NCBI GenBank assembly: GCA_051294905.1
Contig: CM119372.1
Coordinates: 12,526,001 to 12,590,000 of the forward strand
Source of the DNA: Botryllus schlosseri
Lineage: Eukaryota
Direction of reading: 5' to 3'
Length of the DNA stretch: 64,000 bases
Below, one piece after another: positions 1 through 44,400 of this stretch. Within the stretch, counting starts at the first letter, position 1, and each line of letters begins with the position of its first letter. Below the pieces are notes generated by a model. That model had not been told where the DNA came from and did no database searches. It saw only the letters and a list, made by a program, of their open reading frames with translations. The position numbers and the translations under genes were made by a program.

Positions 1-3000
1 CCTGGATGAAGCGTTTACGAGTTTAGCTCCGGAAAATTTATTTCAATTTCTCAGCTATGCAACTTCACGGCCCGTTCGCCGAAAGAATAGAAAAGATTAC
101 CAAGAACCGACAATTTGGATATAGTAAATCCCTACTTGTCATCTATAATAACATCTTAGTAGGTAACATACAGTCCTACTACACAGTAATAGGCAATACT
201 CTACGTGAACGATTCTTAACCTTAGTGCGGATCCCTAAATATATTTGTCTGTTTGCGTGCTCTCCCTAACCGCAAAATCAGAGAAGCAGGTCATCACTTC
301 CGCCCATTCCTCATCATGGCCTCATATTGGCATCTAGTCTGGTTGCTGCCGAAAACAAAGTCATAACCTTCGCTCGTGGCCTGGTGAGCGTTGAACATGA
401 GACTAAAATGAGAGGAGATGTTGTAAAGTAAAGGACAATGTAGTTTTATAGTGGTGGTTTCAACAGTGACCTTTCATGGACCTCTTAAGACCAGTCCGCA
501 GATCCCAAAGTGGTACATTGACCCTTAGGTTAAGAACCTCTGTTTTACGGGCCGTTTGAATAATCTAATAAACCTGTGGGACTCTTACATGCTTATTCGG
601 GTTACTATATGCGAATCATTTGATGCAGCATGCAGTATACTCAGATGTATTATTCAACATATATTTCGGCGAACAAATTAGCAAGCCGGACTCGACAGTC
701 ATTCATACCCATTGTCCTGCTTTGTAGTCGAATGTCGACGGCTTTTTGAATTCCAGATAAGTAACATGCGACGGGAGAAGCTCTGCTCTCACGACAGAAA
801 TTTCAGACTTGTTACGGCTGATGCTGTAGAGCTTGTCCAGCGTGTAAAGCACCGCCGGGCCCAAGAAGAAGTAGTAAAAGAACGGGCGCTGAAGATAAAA
901 GTAATACCCGGTATGAGCCGCGAGTTGGTGTCATGGGTATTTGGATAGGTACGTGGTATCTTGTCTGGTCAACATACATAACTTCACACACCTGTACCAA
1001 ATATCCGCTGCCGTGCAGGACCATGAAAAAGTACAGGAGAACGTATCCGTAGCTGTGAGTCCACCAAAACCAACGAAATACCCAAAGTCTCGCGTGGTCG
1101 CTTGCGAATACGTACCTGTAAGGTTCAGATTTGCAAATCGACGAGATCGTCTCGCGTATAAAGGCGGGGTTGCCATACCGTCCTTATTTCTAAGATTTGT
1201 CCTTATTTTGAAAGGTCAGGTCTTAGAAAACTCAACTGTCCTTATTTTTAGGAAATGTCCTTGTTTTCGATTTGCGTCCTTATTTTGTCTTATTTTCAAC
1301 AACTAAAGAACTTCGCTCGTTTTCCTCTGGTGTCTGTGTTGCTTAATATTCTAAAATTATGCCTTTGAGTTGTCATTTTATGACATAAATGAAAGGAACT
1401 CACGATATGTACATACCACAGGATTAGACTTCTAAGTGGTGAGATAGCTAGGGCGGCAGTGAGTGATATAGCAGTTTCGGCTGTACCAAGCTATCGCAGC
1501 GGACCTCATTTTAGCAGTTAACAGCAGTACCAGGGTTCTGCTGTGTAGTCTACAGCAGAATTAACTGTGGGGAAGGTAGCATTTATTGTGTAGTGAAAAA
1601 GGGAGCAGTGCAGTCGACACTTGGGTTAAAAAGTAGTCAAGCTATAAATCCTTGATAATTTCATTTAAATTATGTTGCAAATATAGTTTTAAGTACCACT
1701 AACAAGGCTAAATCTGATTAGCTAAAATGAGCAAGCGTAAAAATGTTATTCTTGAGGATTATGAGAGAGAATTCAAAGTATCAAACGAAGCTTGGAGGGC
1801 GAGTGTTTCGCTGTTTTGCACATCGCAATATCTGCAATTGTGACATTAACCTGGATGCCATAGGAAAGACCGCTATTTCAACTCTCACAGAGTATGTACA
1901 AAAACTCTCTAATTTTTCGACTGTCCTTATTTTTGGGACAATGTCACTGGCAACCCTGTAATAAAGGATTGACAATTTGCACAGAAATGGAAATAAAATA
2001 CAGAAACGGAATTATTCATGTCTCTCACCGTATTTGCGACATATTTCTCTGATTTTTCTCGAATCTTATGTTCGGATTCAACTTTGAAGTCGGGCTAGCT
2101 AGTCATATAAGAATCGTTGAAACCATTTAATGTTTAGCATGATATTTATTTTCCTTAAAGGTTGATATCAGCCGTACTGCCGCATAAGCTATAGTTTGAT
2201 AGCTGAGACCTAGACAGACCTGTTGGCAATAAAGCTGCTCTAATATCCAGAATATTGCGAAAATCCATAAACGACGTAACACAGTGCACACTGCACACAC
2301 TTACATCGTAATGACAACCAGGGTAGCAAGGATGCCTGTCAATCCCGTAATCGTTTGCCAAGCCCAGTAATGGAATTTAGGCAGCTCATCGCTGGTGCGC
2401 CAGTAGTCCGGGAAAAGGCAGCTCAAATCGCTGGACGGTTGCGTGGCTATGGAGTAGAAGTTGATCGAGTGTCCAAAGATATGAATAACTGTGGAAATCG
2501 AAAATATATTGCAACCGCCATGGTAACATAAACGCCACGCTGTCGCAAACCTGTGAATATCATCGCTTGCCATGCGATGTATCGGTGCATGGACACAGCG
2601 GCGTCAAACGGTATGTAGCGATTGAGGAAGGTTTCTCTTAGGAAGGTGATGGTGTTTCTGCTCATGGTCACGAGAAGGCAGGAATACGTGAACATCATCC
2701 CGGAGGCGGCGCCGCGAGTAAACGACACTCCGTAGCCGCAGATTCGACGGAGCCCGCCGTGCTCTCTTTCAACCGAGTAATCTGCGTCATAGGCGGAAAT
2801 GTAAGGGTGTTTGTTTGTTTGTTTGTTTGTTTGTGGTATTCATGGTGTTTGTCGACTACAACGGTCATCTACACCAGGCCGATAACTTATTTGTTTGATT
2901 CCGTAGCTGCCGACTTGTAGCGCGACCCACTTCTAGGCTTTTTTAAGACACCGCTTAAGCGAATAAGCTGGTGAGGAGGTGCCTAAATAAACCTCCAACA

Positions 3001-6000
3001 CTTATGTAGGAATTCTGGAGTTGACCTGGGTCGGACTCGAACCCACAACCCGTTGGTGATGTAGCTGTGTATTATACCACTACGCTATCGCGCCACAAAT
3101 GTACGGATTAAATAGTATATTCATATCGAAATGAACCCGAATATTTTCGGCTGACTCTCGTCAGGGGTAATCGTCAGCAACTAGTAGAGGATTGGAAAGA
3201 ACATTGTATATCAACATGATTGTTGTCAATACAACAATCATGTACAACAATCATGTTGATATATTCCTTTAAAGGTAGTCTAATTCTGAGAAACACGAAG
3301 GTACCTCGAGAATCTATGACTTATTGACATCTCCAAAGGTGATCAGTAACGCAGTACGCCTATTTTGTCGGAGTACTCAATATGGTTTCGCTCACTTGCA
3401 TTACTTACTCCAGTGTTTATGATTTTAGGGTATACTGCACTTCTACTACAGTTTTCCTTTTTAAGAAGAACTCATAGGCCTAGAATTCTTACTTTACTAC
3501 GTACCTGGAAATCGCTACATCACCTTGTAGCCTACTTGAGTAGAAATTTGCGACGTTGCTTGTAATTCTGCTCGAGTATAAAGAATGGCCACTTTGATCA
3601 ATACTGGAAATTCTCAGTAACAGTTCTGGACTTTTAGGTGGACGATGGCCAATAATTCTATATAGTCCTATAGACATGTAAGCTTCGCGCTTCACTGGAG
3701 CAGACGCCCGTTTTCAAAGGATGGGGGCACTTGTTTTCCGTGATATGCTTGTATCAGCATAACGGAATTCATACGGGCACTGAACAATTATAACCTCATG
3801 TTCAAAATATTTTCGCGTATTTTTATTTGATCTTGTACATTCCATTTCATCCCTTGTATGTTATAATGGAGCGGGTAACGAAAGAGTTCTTATACTTACA
3901 ATAAACCCTTTCCGCGAATATCGCCCAAGCCACCAGCGTGTACAACGTCAGCCAGTAGATGTGCATTCGATAATTCCGGATGTATTTTTGAAAGGCGATC
4001 ATTCGAATCTCGAATTGCGACGATTCTTTCTCCTCACGCTCGTGGACGCGGATGACGACGGTCTTGCGTCTCGCGAGTGCCCCGCGAGAAGTTGACGGCT
4101 CAGAGCTATCGCTAGTCGCCACAGATCTAAATATATATCTGATTTAGATTTGGAATATACAGCACAATGCAGGCATGGCGGAGGCGTATACAATAACCAT
4201 GTACGTACAGCTTATTATTATCAATGAAACGAAGGACCATATCGTTATGGAGGTCAAGTTAAACGTCTACAACGCGTTTTGCTACGCGGATTTGAAAATG
4301 GGCATTGGGCAAGGATTATTATGGGATGAGCTTAAACCAGATATGGAGAGGTCGTCCGGATTAATATATACTTATCTTGCGAAGCGCGGGTTGAGACGTA
4401 GAATTGATGGTGGAATAGGGTCCGTTGCGGAATTTTATTGTCGATTTTGAAAGCAATCGGTAACCAATAGATATGCATGGACTTGATTTGTAGTAAAATC
4501 AGCATTTGAGTTCGATACAGGATTTGAATTTAGAAATGTTAAAACCCGCGTGTCTGTTATAGTTACGTTAAGAGGGGCTTAAGATTGCGAAATACTGATG
4601 GCTGATATTATGCTGCACCTAAGCACGTAAGCATAACCACACGAAAGCATGTACCACAGCCTAAAATAAAGCTCGAACTGAACGATCATGGAAACAGCAA
4701 TTACATCGATGTTGGTGTCACTGACAATGATCACATTCAACGTATAGGCTACTATCGAGGAATAATCTATCAATGCTATCATATATTCAATAAGTATAGG
4801 CTATTATAGAGTAAACAATGGTAATACCATATTATACCTGCAAATGATGTTATTCTTATTTTCACAATAACCTACTGTAAAACGTATTAATGTTCAATTA
4901 CTCAAGTATGTCGTTCACCCAAGAGAGAATGGTTACGAAAGTGGATTAGGAATACAGGCTATATACAAGAAGCTTATGTTGCCGAATAACGAAGATTTAG
5001 CAAGTCTCTTTTATGTATATTATTATTAGTATTATGTATATAATATAAGTATTAATGTGAAAACTTTTCCTATTATTCCTGGATGTTAATATGATTATAC
5101 GACACAATCAAAATTTAGCTCAACGAAACTAGTAGCGCTACAAGCATAAGACGGAAAGTGATACAGTATAGTTGTATCTTGTATTAGTGAAGTGTATTGA
5201 TGAAAATTTCATTATAAAGACGACAGTTGCAGCATCAAGTTGATGCGATGAGTTTTGCGAGACGTCCACGCCACAACACTACACCTTCGTATAATTACTC
5301 TTCTTTCAGAGGTCGGAGCAGAACACGGATGAACTCTTGGCGAGGATACTCTAGTAATACAACGGAGATGAGCACTTACATATATGCAATATATATGTAG
5401 GCCTACATTGTACAAGTATATGCTGACACAAAAGCCAGCTTAGAGTTATACCGGATAATTCGCTCACACAAGATACCCGCATGCTGGTATGCAGACCTGG
5501 ATCTATCTAACAGACTTGTAGAGCAATATGTATAAATGATAAGATGCATCGATGAAATGAAACGTTGGTCAATGCAAATATATAGTGTTAATAGAGTGCT
5601 GATAAAATCGATTGCTCCAGCACTGCATGTATTTAGGCCGATGATATGGCATAACTCTCGGTGTTCGGATATCTATTGTAGAAATTGATATAAATTGGAT
5701 TTATGTTAGGTTTCCTTTGGATAATGCGTGCCAGACAATTCGAAGGAAGATGTGGTTGTATATTATCCGTGTTTAATCCCTTACTTTACATATTTAATAA
5801 TAAAAGCATATATATAATTGACTTTGAAAATCAATAAGCTTATAGGTAACCTTTGGACTATATTCGGACGTATTTCCTATAGCAATATGACTTTATATAT
5901 TTTTGTCCTGGATGTTTTTGCGGAATATACACCGACTAATGATATAGTTGCACAGTTTGCACACGATCTGTGCATATGCCAAACAGTAGGGCGGATCGAC

Positions 6001-9000
6001 AAATTAACTGGTCCTACTACGATCCTGTTTTTTAAAGCTCTGGTCCGACTCCGGTCCGAATCCTAGGCCGAATTCTAGAAATGAACGTGATCCGGTCCGA
6101 AAAACTACGATAATAACTATTTACTCACAGAATAGTATTGAACATTGATTGAAACAATGCAAATAGAAAATTAAAAACTCAAAGATCAAGCCCAACCCCA
6201 TCTGAAGTAATTATATGCCAACTTGGACTTGTCATGTGGTTTATTTTCATGAAGGTTTCACTTCGACTATTGATTCGAGGGAGGAAGTGGGCAACACTGT
6301 CCTCTTCTTAGTGAAAAGAACTGATCCGGCTCCGATCCGACTCCGGCAGTATCGGAAAAAGTACTGATCAGGCTCCGAACCGGCTTCGGCCAAAAATGAG
6401 AAAATCGGGCAGGATATCCAATCCGGTTCCGGTCCATGCTCAGCTCTATATGCATATGGCCTGAGTGCATGATGTGCATATGCCGCTGGACATGGAAGTT
6501 GCGGAAATGGCCTCGTAAGGCTTTTCAAGTCTTGCATCACCCTTCAATGCTATCCTGGAAAGGCCGAGTGCCAAGCAGGGAAGCCACGGTTACCAGATTT
6601 ACTGATCAGGTACTTGGTCTAACCGGTTAGAGGATTGAACTCATTAACTAACGCTCAAGAAGCCGGGCGCTTTACCATTACGTTATCTTGTCGGCGGGTC
6701 GAAATAACCATCCTTGGCATATCCGCGCGACCGCCCCAGTAATAAAACCGTATCATACATACAAATGTACGTTATACAGACGGTGCAGTCAATGTCAAAG
6801 AATTAATCTAAGTATTCTTAAGTACGGTTTAATTGATGACATCATTCGAAAACAACGCACTTGGCAATGCTTTCTTTGGCCGTTCGTCTTGCTTTATGAA
6901 TCCTAGTCTCCCGATTTCTGGAGATAGCTCCCTGACCGGTGCCGTTACTTTTTCCAATCTCTTGTCCCGCAAAAACATCTACAACACGACAAAAATATTG
7001 ATGTCGTAGTCAGGAGTTCCGTTATCGACGTTGTTGGTTTGGAATATAAAGCCACTTCGCCACATCGTGTATTGCTCGCGGTTAAAAAATCAACTCTGCC
7101 ACGCGAACCAGCTATAGCACGATGACCTACCTTCGCCGATTCGGGAGTCATCTAATTCGTCCGTGTACTGGTTCATGACGGTTTGAAAATCGTCGAGAGT
7201 CAACTGCGTCTTATGCTGGAATCCGTGGGTGTTCATAATTTCTTGCACCAAGCCGTCGATTGTTGACGTGTCTATGTTTGTATTCACCATATCCATCGTG
7301 GACCTGGAATGGTATCATTGTCGTTTCAGTTGGAATCAAATGTAATAGCTGAAGTCGGGTATTTTGTAATTATATCGTGAGTTTTTTTTGTCATGTATAA
7401 AAATATAGTTAATCGCTTGTTTCAAGGCGTATATACGGACAATGGGTTCGCTGCAAAACTGCAAATTGCTCGTGTTGAAGTATTCAAAAGTAAAGAAGGC
7501 AGTAAGTATACCAGCCAATGATGCATCCTATAGCTGTTTATGAGAACGGCCCGCACCGACTGGTCAAAATACTGACATGCAACCCCGCAAATAGACGTAC
7601 AGCTTCCATAGCTAGGTTGCGATTTCCAAGCTCAACTTCATAAAGAGTGCTGTACACCGGCGTTACTTTGCATGATTTTCCATAAACATCTTTTATGCTT
7701 GACTTGAGTCGTTACAAATATTTGTGAGATATATAACACTAGAAAAACATATTCGTGTGGGCTATGGATGCCTACTGGAGCATCATGCGAAACTCATCCA
7801 TCGTTAGCGTTCCTGACCGATCCACGTCGTACATGTCGAACATTAACTTTGCTTTGTCCTTGGCATCACCTGTAAACAGCAAACGATCCAGGTCAATATG
7901 TGTCAGGGCTAATTGAATGTCAAATCATAATTTCATGAGATCACGAAACCGCAATACCCCGATGGTACAACGTCGGGTTTTTTAAACAAGCTGAAGAAGG
8001 GTTGTTTGATGTCAGGTTTGACTATAGCTCGAAAGTGTCGAATGCCGAATGCTACCGGGAATTCGCTTCGTCGAACAAACCTTTCGTAAATATCCACATT
8101 ACGTCCAAGAATTCCCGGTAGTTAATGAAACCACTCCCGTCCTTGTCTGCCGTTTGAAACATTTGATCCACGAACAGACTATCGGGTCTCAATTTCAGGT
8201 GATCGGCAAGTTCTTGTTTGCTTAGATCAATATTCGCGTACTTGTGTCTATCGACGGATAGCGGCTGGGAACTTCCAAACTTGTAAACCTATGGTGATAA
8301 AACGAGAATACAATAACGGGTTATCGTATAGTTTATAAGCTGCCATCGAGGTCGAACACAACCTATTCTATCATGGAAAGATTAGTGAAAATGAATCCGG
8401 TCATTATTCCTACATTCTACGCATCGGTGTGGATATTCCGAAACAAATTGCGATGTCATATTTTCCCACCCATTTCGCGTATTGTCCAAAAAAGTTTTCC
8501 AGTTCTTCATCGCGATCTTCTTTCGTCTTCACGATATTCAGGAGATCCTTTTCCTTGATCGGCCCCATGTCTTGTAGTTGTACTCCCTCACCTTCCGAAA
8601 ATTCCCTGAACTTCTGTTGAAATCTGTGTCTTTCGATGGAATCGGTGAAAGTGAGAACCTGTCAATTAAAGTCAGATGTAATTGTACGACGGCATATAGC
8701 TGTTGCGTATCACTTACTCCTCGTCGTTGGAGATAATACAATCATGTATATATTATTGAAACAATATGTATGTACTCAGCTTGGGGAAGCTTACAAGATC
8801 GTATGTCTCCGTTTCAGCAAGGCTCACACCGAGTAAATATCTTGTTCGTGTGTTGGACTGCATTATTTTCACGGTTCCTCGAAGGGATATCGTCCGGAGC
8901 TTAGATCCGCGGGCCGATTTTATTATGATCGCTTTTCCGGGACCCAGAGAAATCTGGAAACAAATATATGTGCCTATTACACCATCGGGTTACCAGGGTG

Positions 9001-12000: not shown

Positions 12001-15000
12001 AATATAATAATTATTGAGGCATAGTAATAGCATTGCTTCTTAACCTTTTTTGGTAATTGTAACTGTGCTTCCAATAAGATTCCTCGTGGCCCCTGTCCAT
12101 TTTCAACACAATTTCCGATGGTACCAATATTAAAATTAGAAAGCCCATTCACTTAAAATTGCGCTTAGCGCGAAGACTATTTTTCAGTTGAATAAATTGG
12201 CCAGGAAAATATTCCACTGCATAGGCCTGATTCCACAATGCATATCGTACCCCTGATGTGGTGCTTCGTACCCCGATTAGGTCAAAGAACCCCTGGAACA
12301 GAAATTTCCAATCGCCGAAGAATTCATTGGCGTTACAGCTGTGGAGCGTATATACTACTACCTTAGTCGCCACCGATAATAACATGAATTTATTATTATT
12401 AATTGTGAAAATGGGACATTGTGGCGCTTATCACCTTATCGGTCTGGTGCACCACGACCAACAATTTCGTATTACATGTCTCAAGTCGTTTACATTTAAA
12501 AAAGAATTGCTTAAATCAACACGTTGCTGGCCAGGACGAACTCAACGATAGGCGATAGAAGTTCTGGCCGTACGAGAAGGTTATCTGTGGTGAACTCAAC
12601 TTTCAAGTTCAAGCAGAAATCAATCAAATATGCTCGGTGCCAATCATATTTTGGGCATGCGAGGAGGAAGTGATCCACATTCTCGGGTACGAGACATAAG
12701 TCACACAATGGCGTGTCGATGCAGCCTATTTTGAATAAATGCCCCTTTAGGCGACAATGGCCGGATCGGAGACGGAATATTATCGTTTCATACAAAAGCG
12801 ATCTGTGCATTGAGGGAAACGTCGTATGTACCGTTTGGTGGAAACGTTTGTAGTGGTTTCCCGTCTCTGTGGAACGGTACTCGGTCTGCCACTCACTCTG
12901 GACGTATTTGCGTACTTCGTTCTTGACATCTCTATAGGTAATTACAGGTAGGCCTACTTCCTGACTGTCAAATGCAAAAGCGGCGGTGGAACGTGCAAGT
13001 TCATCTGCAACCTCATTGCCAGGAATGCCACTATGTCCTGGAACCCAGGAGAAGGCAACGTCGATGCTCATTCCTACCAACTGCAGGAACAGAGGGAAAA
13101 TCTTATTGAACGTTCTGCTCGGTTTGCGGTTCGGGTAGCGATTGTATTCAGAACACTAAGACAATCTGTGATAATAACATGGATAAAGAGAACAAACAAC
13201 ACCCAGCATGGGTACGTCACGGGGGTCACAGAATACCAATGGTTGCCATACTGACCAGATTAGATAACTATATACCCTGCGCAACGCATGCTACGACCTT
13301 TTTATATATTACTATTTCCCATGACAGTTTCATAGATTGTTGCGTCCGTAGGATTACCAAGTTACGGTTACGAGTCGCAAGTCCTTCTCTGATTTTGACG
13401 GTTGACCCGACTAAACTAGAGTCATTTTTATTTAATCATCCAGTCCATCCGTAATCGAGTAATTTTACGAAAGGTCGCACCAAACCAAATAACAATTTTC
13501 AGTCGCGAATCATCAACGGGTCTTGTTTTATCATCACGTAATAGCTGATCTTCTACCGCATGGTAGCTTAAGTGATATGATAGTGAAGCTCGTTGAGATT
13601 TCAGTGATTTTTATAGTAGTTTTAGGGTGAACTTCAAGTTCTTATACCTAAAAAGATATATGGCACTTGAATATATTGTTGAATACTTGAAATTCCAAAA
13701 TGCCGTCGCGGGCCGCGTGTTTGAGACCTCTGAGGTAGAGCATAGCGACGAGAGGATTTTGTTGCACTATATGATATATGTGAAGACCTTTTGCAGCAAT
13801 ACAGGAGATACAGGATACTGGGTCGATTCTTGGCATGTGAAAAATCTCACTTGAATATTGATGGCCATGAGATCACGACGAGAGAATTCGAGAGGACCAA
13901 ACACGCTTCCCCGTAAGTCGGGAGTTATGATGTTGTCTTCACGCTCGCAAATCTGACTGGCCATCCCCATGAGCAGTTCGCTGAAGCCATCTTCGGATGA
14001 ACCCAACTTTTCGGTCAACGCTTCCTGCCAATACAGAACAATATGGAACAGGTTCGTCGGCAAGAACGGTATAGAAATAAGACCACGGGTTTTTCCGTCT
14101 CGCAAACAACAGTTTTTTCGCAATACTTCCATTGTACTATAGTACAATGGGAGTATTGCGAAAAATTTGTGTTCATACTGTATAGAACTACATACAGCAC
14201 TTGTACATACAATATGAAATCTAACACTTTTCGTCATATCACAGTTCGACGAGATAGAAAATAAATGGTTGCTGCAATCTGCCTGTATTATCTATAGATG
14301 GACTAATAACCTTGTTATTGTTTTTGTGTCGGGTGACGTATCTCTTACATCGGAAATCCCGAAGCAACTGATTAAGAAATCTATATCGAAGATGTTTTGA
14401 CCGCCCATTGTTTTGCGGTTGGAGTTCGTTCGGTTTGATTTACGATACGAGATGTAAGACAATGTCCAACTATTACCGATATATATCAATACGGAGCCAA
14501 GTCGAAGACAAAAATATTCCCCGTATTTCGAGTTAGATTTACCGCAGTCGGTACATTGTCGTTCGCTACTGATGAGAGTCTGACGTAAGCTTTTGTAAAT
14601 ATATTCACATAATACAGTCATTGCTATTTCTGTACCGCGATTGGTTTGCCTGGAATTGGCAAGAATGTCCGCATTCAACAACATTTTCTTGTGCTTTTCG
14701 TAGTCGTACGTATACCCAGTGACATTTGCTCAAACAAAACGCAATACTGCAATATTATGATCATCTTCCAAAAAGTCTTGCATCCGGGGATATGTGTAAT
14801 ACATTGCGAAGCATGACTTTGATCACATCCGGCAGATATGAAGATTTGTCGAACAATTTTCATGCGAGTAAACTCTCACGCCTTTTCGCGGACAGTATGA
14901 GAAATAGCAACTGCAACATGTGTGGGACTCACGATGGCTTACCACATTTTGCATGTAATCGAAGTTTGCCGTGATTGGGCGTTGCGGCTAAGCAATAGGT

Positions 15001-41400: not shown

Positions 41401-44400
41401 TTTCACTAAAATCGCGTAACTCCTCTGTATGGGCTGGAATCGGTGTTGCCCAAACTCTTTTGAGCTAGCACATCCCTGGACAACGGCTAGATCTAGAGTG
41501 TCAGCGCCCCCCCCCCGACTCCCCCTGACCACGCCTAAATCAAACGAAAGTTGTTCTGCATTTATTACAGCTAATTATGAGACGGGTCAAGCTGGTGTAT
41601 TATTATGATCACCCTCGTCGCATTGGGTTTGAGTTTTGATAAGAACAATCTATTTCGAAAATCTCCAGTCACCAGGTTCCGTACTGTGAAGTCGGTTTCT
41701 GCTGCGAGTCAGAAACCTTGTCACGGCTTTTAAAACACGTTCTATTAGTATTAAATATGATCGAGGAAAGGCAGCGGCACAAAACTCGACCCGATTCTAA
41801 TGAGAGTATGTCGCCATGATTTAATTGTGTATCCTATCCACAACGAATAATTGGATATATTGAACTTCAGTTTGAACTCAAAACTGTTCTACCTCTGACA
41901 CTATAATCTAACGCGAAACAATAACTTCATATTGTTAATTTATTCGCTAAAAGCTTTTCGACTGACTCTCATCAGTAGCGAACGTCAGTAATAGGGTGAA
42001 TCAAATTCAAAATGTAGAAACTATTTTGTCTGTATGACGTAATATTAACAAAAACAAACAATTAGTAGACAAGCAAGATACGTTAGCAACGATACAAAAC
42101 AAACGTATCTACAATCCTGGAATATTTCATTAATGTTATGTGTTGTTGTTTCCAGTTATTTATAACTGAATATGTACTCGTTAACGTTTGTTTTGTATCG
42201 TTACTATACCGTATATAGAAAAGTCGATTATAACTTGACAATGTTGATCCTGCCATTCAATGGACTAATTTAGCAGTCGGTAGCGCGGTAGGGGGTAGGG
42301 GTGTAGGGGGCGCTACGAGTAAACGGGGGCGGTGTAGGTTTGGAAGGCAACTGCTGCGTAGTGTTGAAACGACTGATGAATAAAGCAGCTGAATTCGCAG
42401 CAATATTCAGAATCGATTCATTCAGGGCAATTTAGGATCGTCCGTCTATCTCAGTGGTTCTTATCCTTGCCCCCAGCGCCGCCCAAGGGGCGCTGGCGAT
42501 TTTGAAGGGGGCGGAAACGCTCAGGGGGCGATATGGGGGGCGCTGGGCTCAGGGGGGCGGTATGGGGGGCGCTGGAGAAAAATGGCTTCGCAGTAGATGA
42601 TGTGGTGGTAGGACATATCCTTAATGAGTATTCAGAGCAAATTAACACCGAAAACTTCGTTATAGCCTTCAAAATACAAATAGTTTTATTTGTCCATGGG
42701 CGCCTAAATGACTGGCACCGAATGTTGCTGTCTTGGCAATCTGAACCCCAGAAGGCGAATTCCATCTGACAGAGAAAAATTATATGCCAGTGAATAAATA
42801 CCAATTTGAAATCGTGTGCGTCTTTTAGTTTAGTACGATTTGGCGACAGGGATATTCCTGTTGAGCGATATCCCCGTTGGGCGATATCCCCGTTGGGCGA
42901 TCCCCGTTTTTGATATAGCAGACAGGAGGTCACGAAATAACATCATGCAACGAAGTCATACCAACGGGTTCGCCCGCCCGAATATGTTTAATTATTAGTT
43001 ACGGGCCCTACAGTTTCCAAGACACCTCACAATGTTCGCTTTAAGTTTTGATGAGTCTGCGCACACTCAACAACTCACTGCGCTGACCCTTGGACAACAG
43101 TGCGTAACGACTAAAAAAAGGTCATAACTTCTGATTTGTTGTGCGCAACGTAGATTTTCTGTGCGCAGCGACCGTGTCGGCACTGCGCACGTGCGCAGCT
43201 TAGAGGGAACATTGTACCGCACTCAGCTCTACCGGTAAATCTGGTAACGTGAGCAGAGAGGACAAGAAATTGATAGCAATATATATGCAATCCTCGATCT
43301 TAGCCTACTGTCCGATTCTAGTATGATATCGACAGTTTTCGCGCTTCGCAAAGGCACGCTAAACAGTACAGCTGATTCCGCGGCAAAAGCGAACAACGTG
43401 ATGGGGGGCGGTCGGTTTACCACCCTATGGGAGCCCAAGACCCAAGTTTTTTCGGGGGCCTGACGAAGTGCCGTTTCGTTCCTGCCAACGGGTATACACC
43501 CGAAGATGTATGATTATTATTGAGAGGTCCTACCTTTTCAATCACACATCACTCAGCTTTACCGGTAAATCTGTTTACGTGAGCAGAGAGAGGATAAAAA
43601 TTGATCTCAATATGCATGCAATTCCCGATCATATTGACCAATTCAATCATTAATTAGTGAAATGTTTCGCGCTTCGCGCGTCTAAGCGAGAATAGCTGCC
43701 TCAGTAAATGGACGCCCAATGTAGATGACTATTATCAGCAAATATCGGACAGCCGAATGGGGGTCTGGGGGCGAAGCCCCCCGGAAGTTTGGTTTATCAC
43801 CCGATGGGGACTCAAGACCAACGTTTTTTGTTGGGGGGGGCTGACGAAGTGCTGTTACGGCCCTGGTAACGAATTAATTGTACCTACGGGCACGCCCGAA
43901 TAAGTTTAATTATTAATTACGTGCCCTTTATTTTCCTGTACACCAGCTCACTCCGCGCTGCTGGTAAATCTGATTACGTGGGCTGAGAGGATAAAAAGTT
44001 TATAGCGACTTATATATGTAAATACCACCTATTCATTAAAGCATTATAGAAAATTTTGGTACCTAGGGCGAACAGGCCACACAAACTTTGCTGACCATCG
44101 AAATCACGCTATGGGGTTCTTGGGGGCGAAGTCCTCAGAAGTTTGGTTTATCACGCTATGGGTGCACAAGGCAATCGTTTTTAGGGGGATTGACGAAGTG
44201 CTGTTGCGGCCCTCCCTCTTACTCATTGTCTTTATTACATTCCTTATAATATGAGGTTGGGGGGCGCTGGAGCACGATAATTTTTGAAAGGGGGCGCTGG
44301 AGGAAAAAAGGTTAAGAACCACTGGTCTATCTACTCAGCCGTTCCAGAAAAGTCCATTGTTACTTAACAATGTGGATCCTGCCTTTCAATGGAGTAATTC

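Follow-up and report, generated by a model that had tools for sequence, protein, structure and literature searches.

A stretch of 64,000 nucleotides from Botryllus schlosseri (in the following, the window) contains a short hammerhead ribozyme motif within an intron of a DUOX gene, and an earlier note on this DNA proposed that it is transcribed with the DUOX pre-mRNA and could cut it. The question raised by this locus is whether the motif belongs to the regulation of its host gene or to a mobile element which happened to insert there, and whether a single copy would be able to cleave the host transcript.

Motif and host intron

The minus-strand sequence from 3178 to 3135 was identical to the one transcribed in the earlier note, and all of the parts named there were found: the catalytic boxes CUGACGA and GAAA, a stem I of ACCC and GGGU, a stem II of one pair (G10.1-C11.1), the palindrome AAUAUU and the cleavage triplet UUC, with the predicted scissile bond between 3139 and 3138 (Table 1). 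The motif thus follows the type I pattern of CUGANGA, a GAAA core and an NUH triplet. In a scan with Rfam, the motif in the DUOX intron gave no match at the gathering score, and none of the 15 matches obtained at E<=10 was a hammerhead. The hammerhead models of Rfam probably do not cover minimal forms. The weak miRNA-like matches of the scan correspond to the fold-back at 3207-3263.

Table 1. Positions of the hammerhead parts, the inserted element and the features of the host locus within the window.
Feature	Position	Strand	Remarks
Minimal type I hammerhead motif	3135..3178	-	sequence and alignment
5' pseudoknot strand of hammerhead	3178-3173	-	
6-bp pseudoknot	3150..3178 (3178-3173 with 3155-3150 of loop II)	-	covariation
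Stem I of hammerhead	3168-3165 with 3138-3135	-	
Hammerhead core	3164-3158	-	
G10.1	3157	-	
Loop II of hammerhead	3156-3150	-	
C11.1	3149	-	
GAA of hammerhead	3148-3146	-	
Palindrome of hammerhead	3145-3140	-	
C17 of hammerhead	3139	-	
5'-truncated Penelope-like element end (pLTR)	3107..3216	-	110 bp, 97.3% identical to full unit
Short fold-back at 5' junction	3207..3263	.	contains the first ~10 bases of the element in inverted form
DUOX host intron	2782..3899	-	1118 nt, GT at 3899, AG at 2782, phase 1
tRNA-like repeat, putatively SINE-type, older	2803..3097	-	A/B-box-like motifs, CAAA tail, directly downstream of element end
Second hammerhead, sister Penelope family, palindrome AAGCUU	41945..41989	-	different intron of DUOX paralog

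The exon at 2779-2540 matches mouse DUOX1 with an E of 3e-19, and DUOX-like frames, listed roughly by hand, place about 22-24 exons upstream of the intron. One contig of run X1 (contig 2) joins 2781 to 3900 exactly and without a gap. Since the GT-AG borders and this splice join enclose the motif, it is intronic and in sense to DUOX, as had been claimed. The window also comprises a tandem duplicate of the gene, in which 35733-64000 aligns to 46-21949 on the minus strand in many blocks of 78-94% identity, some of them intronic. In the matching intron of this paralog (40867-40030), the hammerhead core is absent.

Other repeats contribute to the DUOX introns as well. By our own reading of its sequence, the repeat at 2803-3097 would be a SINE; it showed matches of 74-81% elsewhere in the window, and ARAGORN detected no tRNA in it. 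Transcription of the hammerhead by Pol III from this repeat was ruled out, since the promoter would start downstream of the motif. A further older repeat in the hammerhead-bearing intron (3560-3334) showed 69-80% identity, with 39 other matches among 40 scored. In a DUOX intron, the minus strand at 12514-13155 contains a frame of 214 aa bearing an RNase H-like motif; this is probably the remnant of a LINE.

A Penelope-type element as the source of the motif

For a genome-wide count, a 34-base core pattern with one N was taken from the motif and compared with a reversed control in the 495.5-Mb genome. The exact matches amounted to 3153 (1597+1556), while the control gave 0; the motif is thus no chance occurrence. 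This density of one core per 157 kb corresponds to about 0.08 sense copies expected by chance in a gene of 25 kb. A genome search with 3090-3400, in which 40 of 1024 candidates were scored, resulted in 48 matches; those outside the own locus and its fold-back span approximately 3216-3106 at 91-97% identity. A second copy of the 3107-3216 family was not found in the 64-kb window. The other copies share a fixed 3' end and extend on the 5' side by varying lengths into an RT ORF. Compared to the full unit, the window copy showed three substitutions (3190, 3156 and 3127), none of them in the catalytic core, and it retains 18 nt of the ORF (ATG at 3124-3122), most of the ORF start being lost. The A in its loop II is a rare substitution, determined in 18 of the 3153 core matches.

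We were able to find full units in tandem, with four of them head to tail at a period of 2692 (G000:C16). The units at locus L047 comprise an ORF of 848 aa with RT and GIY-YIG, whose ATG follows the motif end by 10 nt and the cut site by 14 nt. This single ORF is of the PLE-type RT (RVT_1, E 7.8e-9, DKG and YVDD motifs), while a search of solved structures showed weak RT matches only (best E 8e-4) and no match to telomerase. Two observations underlie the assignment of a C-terminal GIY-YIG: its motif occurs at aa 726-741, and Atlas clusters were obtained at 0.94 (Pfam share of 22-30%). A Pfam search of the protein gave no GIY-YIG match, and no CX2-5CxxC linker was matched. Together with the tandem units, a pLTR bearing the hammerhead, 5' truncation, an inverted partner and a tail of 30-40 nt were observed, and inverted partners and tails were common among the copies. 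In an alignment of 43 rows, with overlaps between three pairs of loci and a choice of loci by likeness to the window copy, 21 copies, like the window copy, extend 28 nt beyond the motif, 7 extend 29-36 nt and 14 extend 50-71 nt, and one is cut by the end of the locus.

Based on these ORF motifs and this layout, the motif in the DUOX intron is assigned to a young and highly abundant Penelope/Poseidon-type retroelement as its pLTR hammerhead. The earlier proposal of a minimal type I hammerhead from a Penelope-like element, built for action as a dimer, is supported at the level of sequence. A non-LTR retrozyme was rejected, since only a single copy is present here and the repeat unit is a coding element of 2692 bp. 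A related ORF (57% identity at L052) likewise precedes the hammerheads of a sister family, for which 269 exact matches were counted in the genome.

Dimer-acting Penelope hammerheads are already in print (Cervera & De la Pena 2014, PMC4209133; review PMC6765202). The former describes minimal hammerheads in the pLTRs of metazoan Penelope-like elements, with thousands of single copies per genome. The present family resembles them in its type I topology, the 4-bp helix I, the palindromic helix III which needs a dimer, the pair G10.1-C11.1, the thousands of mostly single truncated copies and the pairs on opposite strands. With the Poseidon element of Anolis carolinensis (PAc), as described in the consulted sections of PMC11167929, it shares RT and C-terminal GIY-YIG, tandem units, a hammerhead at the junction of pLTR and ORF, and a tail past the ORF start, whereas the cut site lies 26 nt after the start codon in PAc and is predicted 14 nt before it in the 2692-bp element. 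The accessible portion of PMC10085705 contains no mention of the present family, and a literature search on ascidian Penelope hammerheads found nothing, which is not proof of absence from print.

The fold-back at the 5' junction would be a by-product of the insertion. Breaks at an imperfect palindrome, 38-40 nt on the 5' side of the motif, were observed at 3216 in the window and at five further loci (L007, L016, L017, L024 and L030), a selection biased toward the window copy. Inversions are frequent at this palindrome, which is possibly a site of fold-back priming. Contig 8 of run X15 matches 3908-3258 and then leaves the reference beside the 5' junction, with 65 letters unaccounted for, which is suggestive of an allele without the insertion and may represent one.

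These data also bear on a possible domestication of the copy for the regulation of DUOX. Like the hammerheads of RECK and C10orf118/CTCL and the HDV-like ribozyme of CPEB3, it has the sense orientation within an intron of a protein-coding gene, and domestication has been proposed for amniote intronic hammerheads (PMC6155905, consulted in part). However, those ribozymes are conserved across species, whereas the DUOX copy is one of more than 3000 copies of a young family; instead of being locus-specific and conserved in orthologous introns, it is missing from the intron of the paralog. In loop II it carries a substitution that is rare in the family, and the departure of the X15 contig from the reference at 3258 may reflect an empty allele. 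A regulatory role like that of the RECK hammerhead or the CPEB3 ribozyme is therefore considered extremely improbable.

Pseudoknot and competing hairpin

The earlier note overlooked a pseudoknot of 6 bp, formed by the 5' GCUGAC with its complement GUCAGC in loop II. Pseudoknots are reportedly discussed by Lunse, Weinberg and Breaker (2016), whose work may already contain the pseudoknotted form. A relaxed pattern (core only, U at position 7) gave 924 genome matches compared to 5 in the control, and the first 30 of these were aligned with both copies of the window and one from a full unit, resulting in 33 rows, 28 of them distinct and 0 dropped. Within the 28 distinct rows, 80.1% of the whole fold was paired and 9 of 14 pairs showed changes on both sides, including 3 of 4 in stem I and 2 of 3 in the palindrome, whose helix III is formed in the dimer only; the pair G10.1-C11.1 was present in 28 of 28 rows, being fixed by the search pattern. 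For the pseudoknot alone, 78.6% of 168 cells were paired and both-side changes occurred in 4 of 6 pairs. The expectation of the earlier note that the helices covary across genome copies was borne out, with a covariation score of 0.371 for the whole fold compared to 0.190 in shuffled (0 of 500) and at most 0.086 in slid alignments, and of 0.336 for the pseudoknot compared to 0.219 (0 of 500) and at most 0.107, although the shuffles overstate independence because the rows stem from few related families and not from independent lineages. The number of both-side pairs by itself was not significant for the whole fold (91 of 500), and for the pseudoknot it was reached in 107 of 500 shuffles.

As would be expected, the variation lies between families, the pseudoknot variants being GCUGAC/GUCAGC, ACUGAC/GUCAGU, ACUAAC/GUUAGU and ACUGGC/GCCAGU. 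Stem I and the palindrome covary between element families together with the pseudoknot; the hammerhead fold is thus under selection in the transposon. Families with a 6-nt loop II and GAAAC were also sought, but their 7 matches fell below the 15 of the control and thus gave no signal. One more core-like motif is repeated at loci L053 and L059 (1487-1548); its loop II differs, and the GAAAUGUAC downstream of it lies outside the A15.1-U16.1 register.

According to the consulted part of PMC6155905, minimal hammerheads usually lack tertiary contacts, and the hammerheads of PMC4209133 possess a helix II of 6-8 bp, whereas the present family comprises a one-pair helix II and the covarying pseudoknot instead. 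This architecture corresponds to a form described by Perreault et al. 2011 (PMC3088659, consulted in part), in which a six-pair pseudoknot links stems I and II and stem II is a single pair; about 40% of the hammerheads there use a pseudoknot, and the example tested cleaved at more than 1.2/min. That example is a metagenomic type II hammerhead, while the present family belongs to type I, has a palindromic helix III and resides in a retroelement. Since pseudoknot and one-pair stem II form a known fast architecture, the family could exceed the described minimal hammerheads in activity.

The 5' strand of the pseudoknot duplicates the CUGAC of the core throughout the family (window 3178-3150). Since both carry CUGAC, loop II can pair with either of them, which would be a possible off/on switch. 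The predicted MFE of the monomer is an inactive fold containing the core/loop II hairpin CUGAC/GUCAG, and this hairpin is possible in 89% of 140 cells. Taken together with the finding that HHR cleavage was dispensable for the insertion of PAc in vitro (PMC11167929), it could be supposed that a ribozyme fold is never adopted by the motif, not even in full elements, and that its sequence is kept for another function, for example protein binding or translation start. In contrast, none of the 5 hairpin pairs changed on both sides, which is a weak test because the search pattern leaves hardly any freedom on the core side, the hammerhead helices do covary, and the computed stability of the pseudoknot helix (-8.2 kcal/mol) exceeds that of the hairpin (-6.2 kcal/mol). 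We regard a purely non-catalytic motif as very improbable.

Consequences for the DUOX transcript

For the full element, a ribozyme acting as a dimer can be described as follows. Each 2692-nt unit of the tandem array supplies one hammerhead, and two units in one transcript would pair via AAUAUU to helix III, while the pseudoknot would align and hold stems I and II; judged from known Penelope hammerheads, the cut would then fall 14 nt before the ORF start. As a consequence of the palindromic helix III, a partner motif is needed. In the DUOX intron, a heavily 5'-truncated insertion would have landed by chance, to be transcribed with the pre-mRNA and, having no partner in cis, to be spliced out uncut and degraded. 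Altogether, it is very probable that the motif is the pLTR hammerhead of the abundant Penelope/Poseidon-type element and that the DUOX copy is such a chance insertion, most likely uncut. The copy is most likely inert because a second family copy is missing in the window, the palindrome of the second window hammerhead (AAGCUU) is incompatible, the computed AAUAUU homoduplex reaches only -0.2 kcal/mol, only 18 nt of the ORF remain and the core is absent from the paralog intron. A heterodimer of the two window hammerheads was ruled out, with +3.3 kcal/mol for their palindromes. Given these findings, the 3153 copies and the ~0.08 copies expected by chance, a cutting or regulatory role in the DUOX pre-mRNA is not supported, and its cleavage is unlikely. 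In the consulted part of PMC4209133, single minimal hammerheads showed no cleavage and dimers cleaved little. Related retrozymes are depleted in Xenopus introns, yet about 43% of the copies are intronic (bioRxiv 10.64898/2026.07.22.740005, consulted in part), which indicates that intronic copies are commonplace.

A lone copy might still cut the DUOX pre-mRNA to a meaningful degree in trans, together with Penelope transcripts or the element protein, as a side effect of element expression. The DUOX copy has retained an intact core, stem I, pseudoknot and palindrome, and the element-derived reads in the RNA runs indicate that partners in trans exist. Assistance by protein is known for a Poseidon HHR, as the PAc hammerhead cut only in the presence of the element protein (PMC11167929). 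However, the homoduplex is hardly stable, the PAc protein needed the first 172 nt of the ORF on the RNA for insertion, compared to 18 nt in the DUOX copy, and an intron of 1118 nt would be short-lived; for PAc, 0 RNA-seq ends were determined at the cut site according to the same part of that study. Meaningful cleavage in trans is thus quite unlikely. Its extension, which we consider distinctly improbable, would be a fast pseudoknotted hammerhead restrained by the missing helix III and the core hairpin, with element RNA or protein activating solo sense intronic copies, including that of DUOX, to cut host pre-mRNAs in trans. If true, a transposon burst would knock down scattered genes such as DUOX; a direct degradation of host pre-mRNAs by transposon activity would be new.

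With the preferred reading of a chance insertion, the motif is of little consequence for DUOX and represents an ordinary transposon scar. The family itself, being young, with tandem units, open ORFs and more than 3000 copies, is a test case for the role of Penelope hammerheads, and its covarying pseudoknot predicts specific compensatory mutants.

In the raw-read RNA runs X23 and X21, the depth of the DUOX exons was approximately 0-1 and the repeat bin was filled by reads from other copies; piled read ends were found only at 6057 and 6059. In run X23, 145 and 176 reads showed loose ends at 3107 and 3216. At 5979-6463, joints in all four runs skip about 483 bases, which may reflect an insertion, nested or polymorphic, within a repeat.

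Each of the two hammerheads of the window has the sense orientation relative to its host gene, but 2 of 2 are too few to carry weight. The second one is borne by 42218-41909, which consists of a sister-family fragment of about 198 bp (42106-41909) and an inverted piece (42218-42102).
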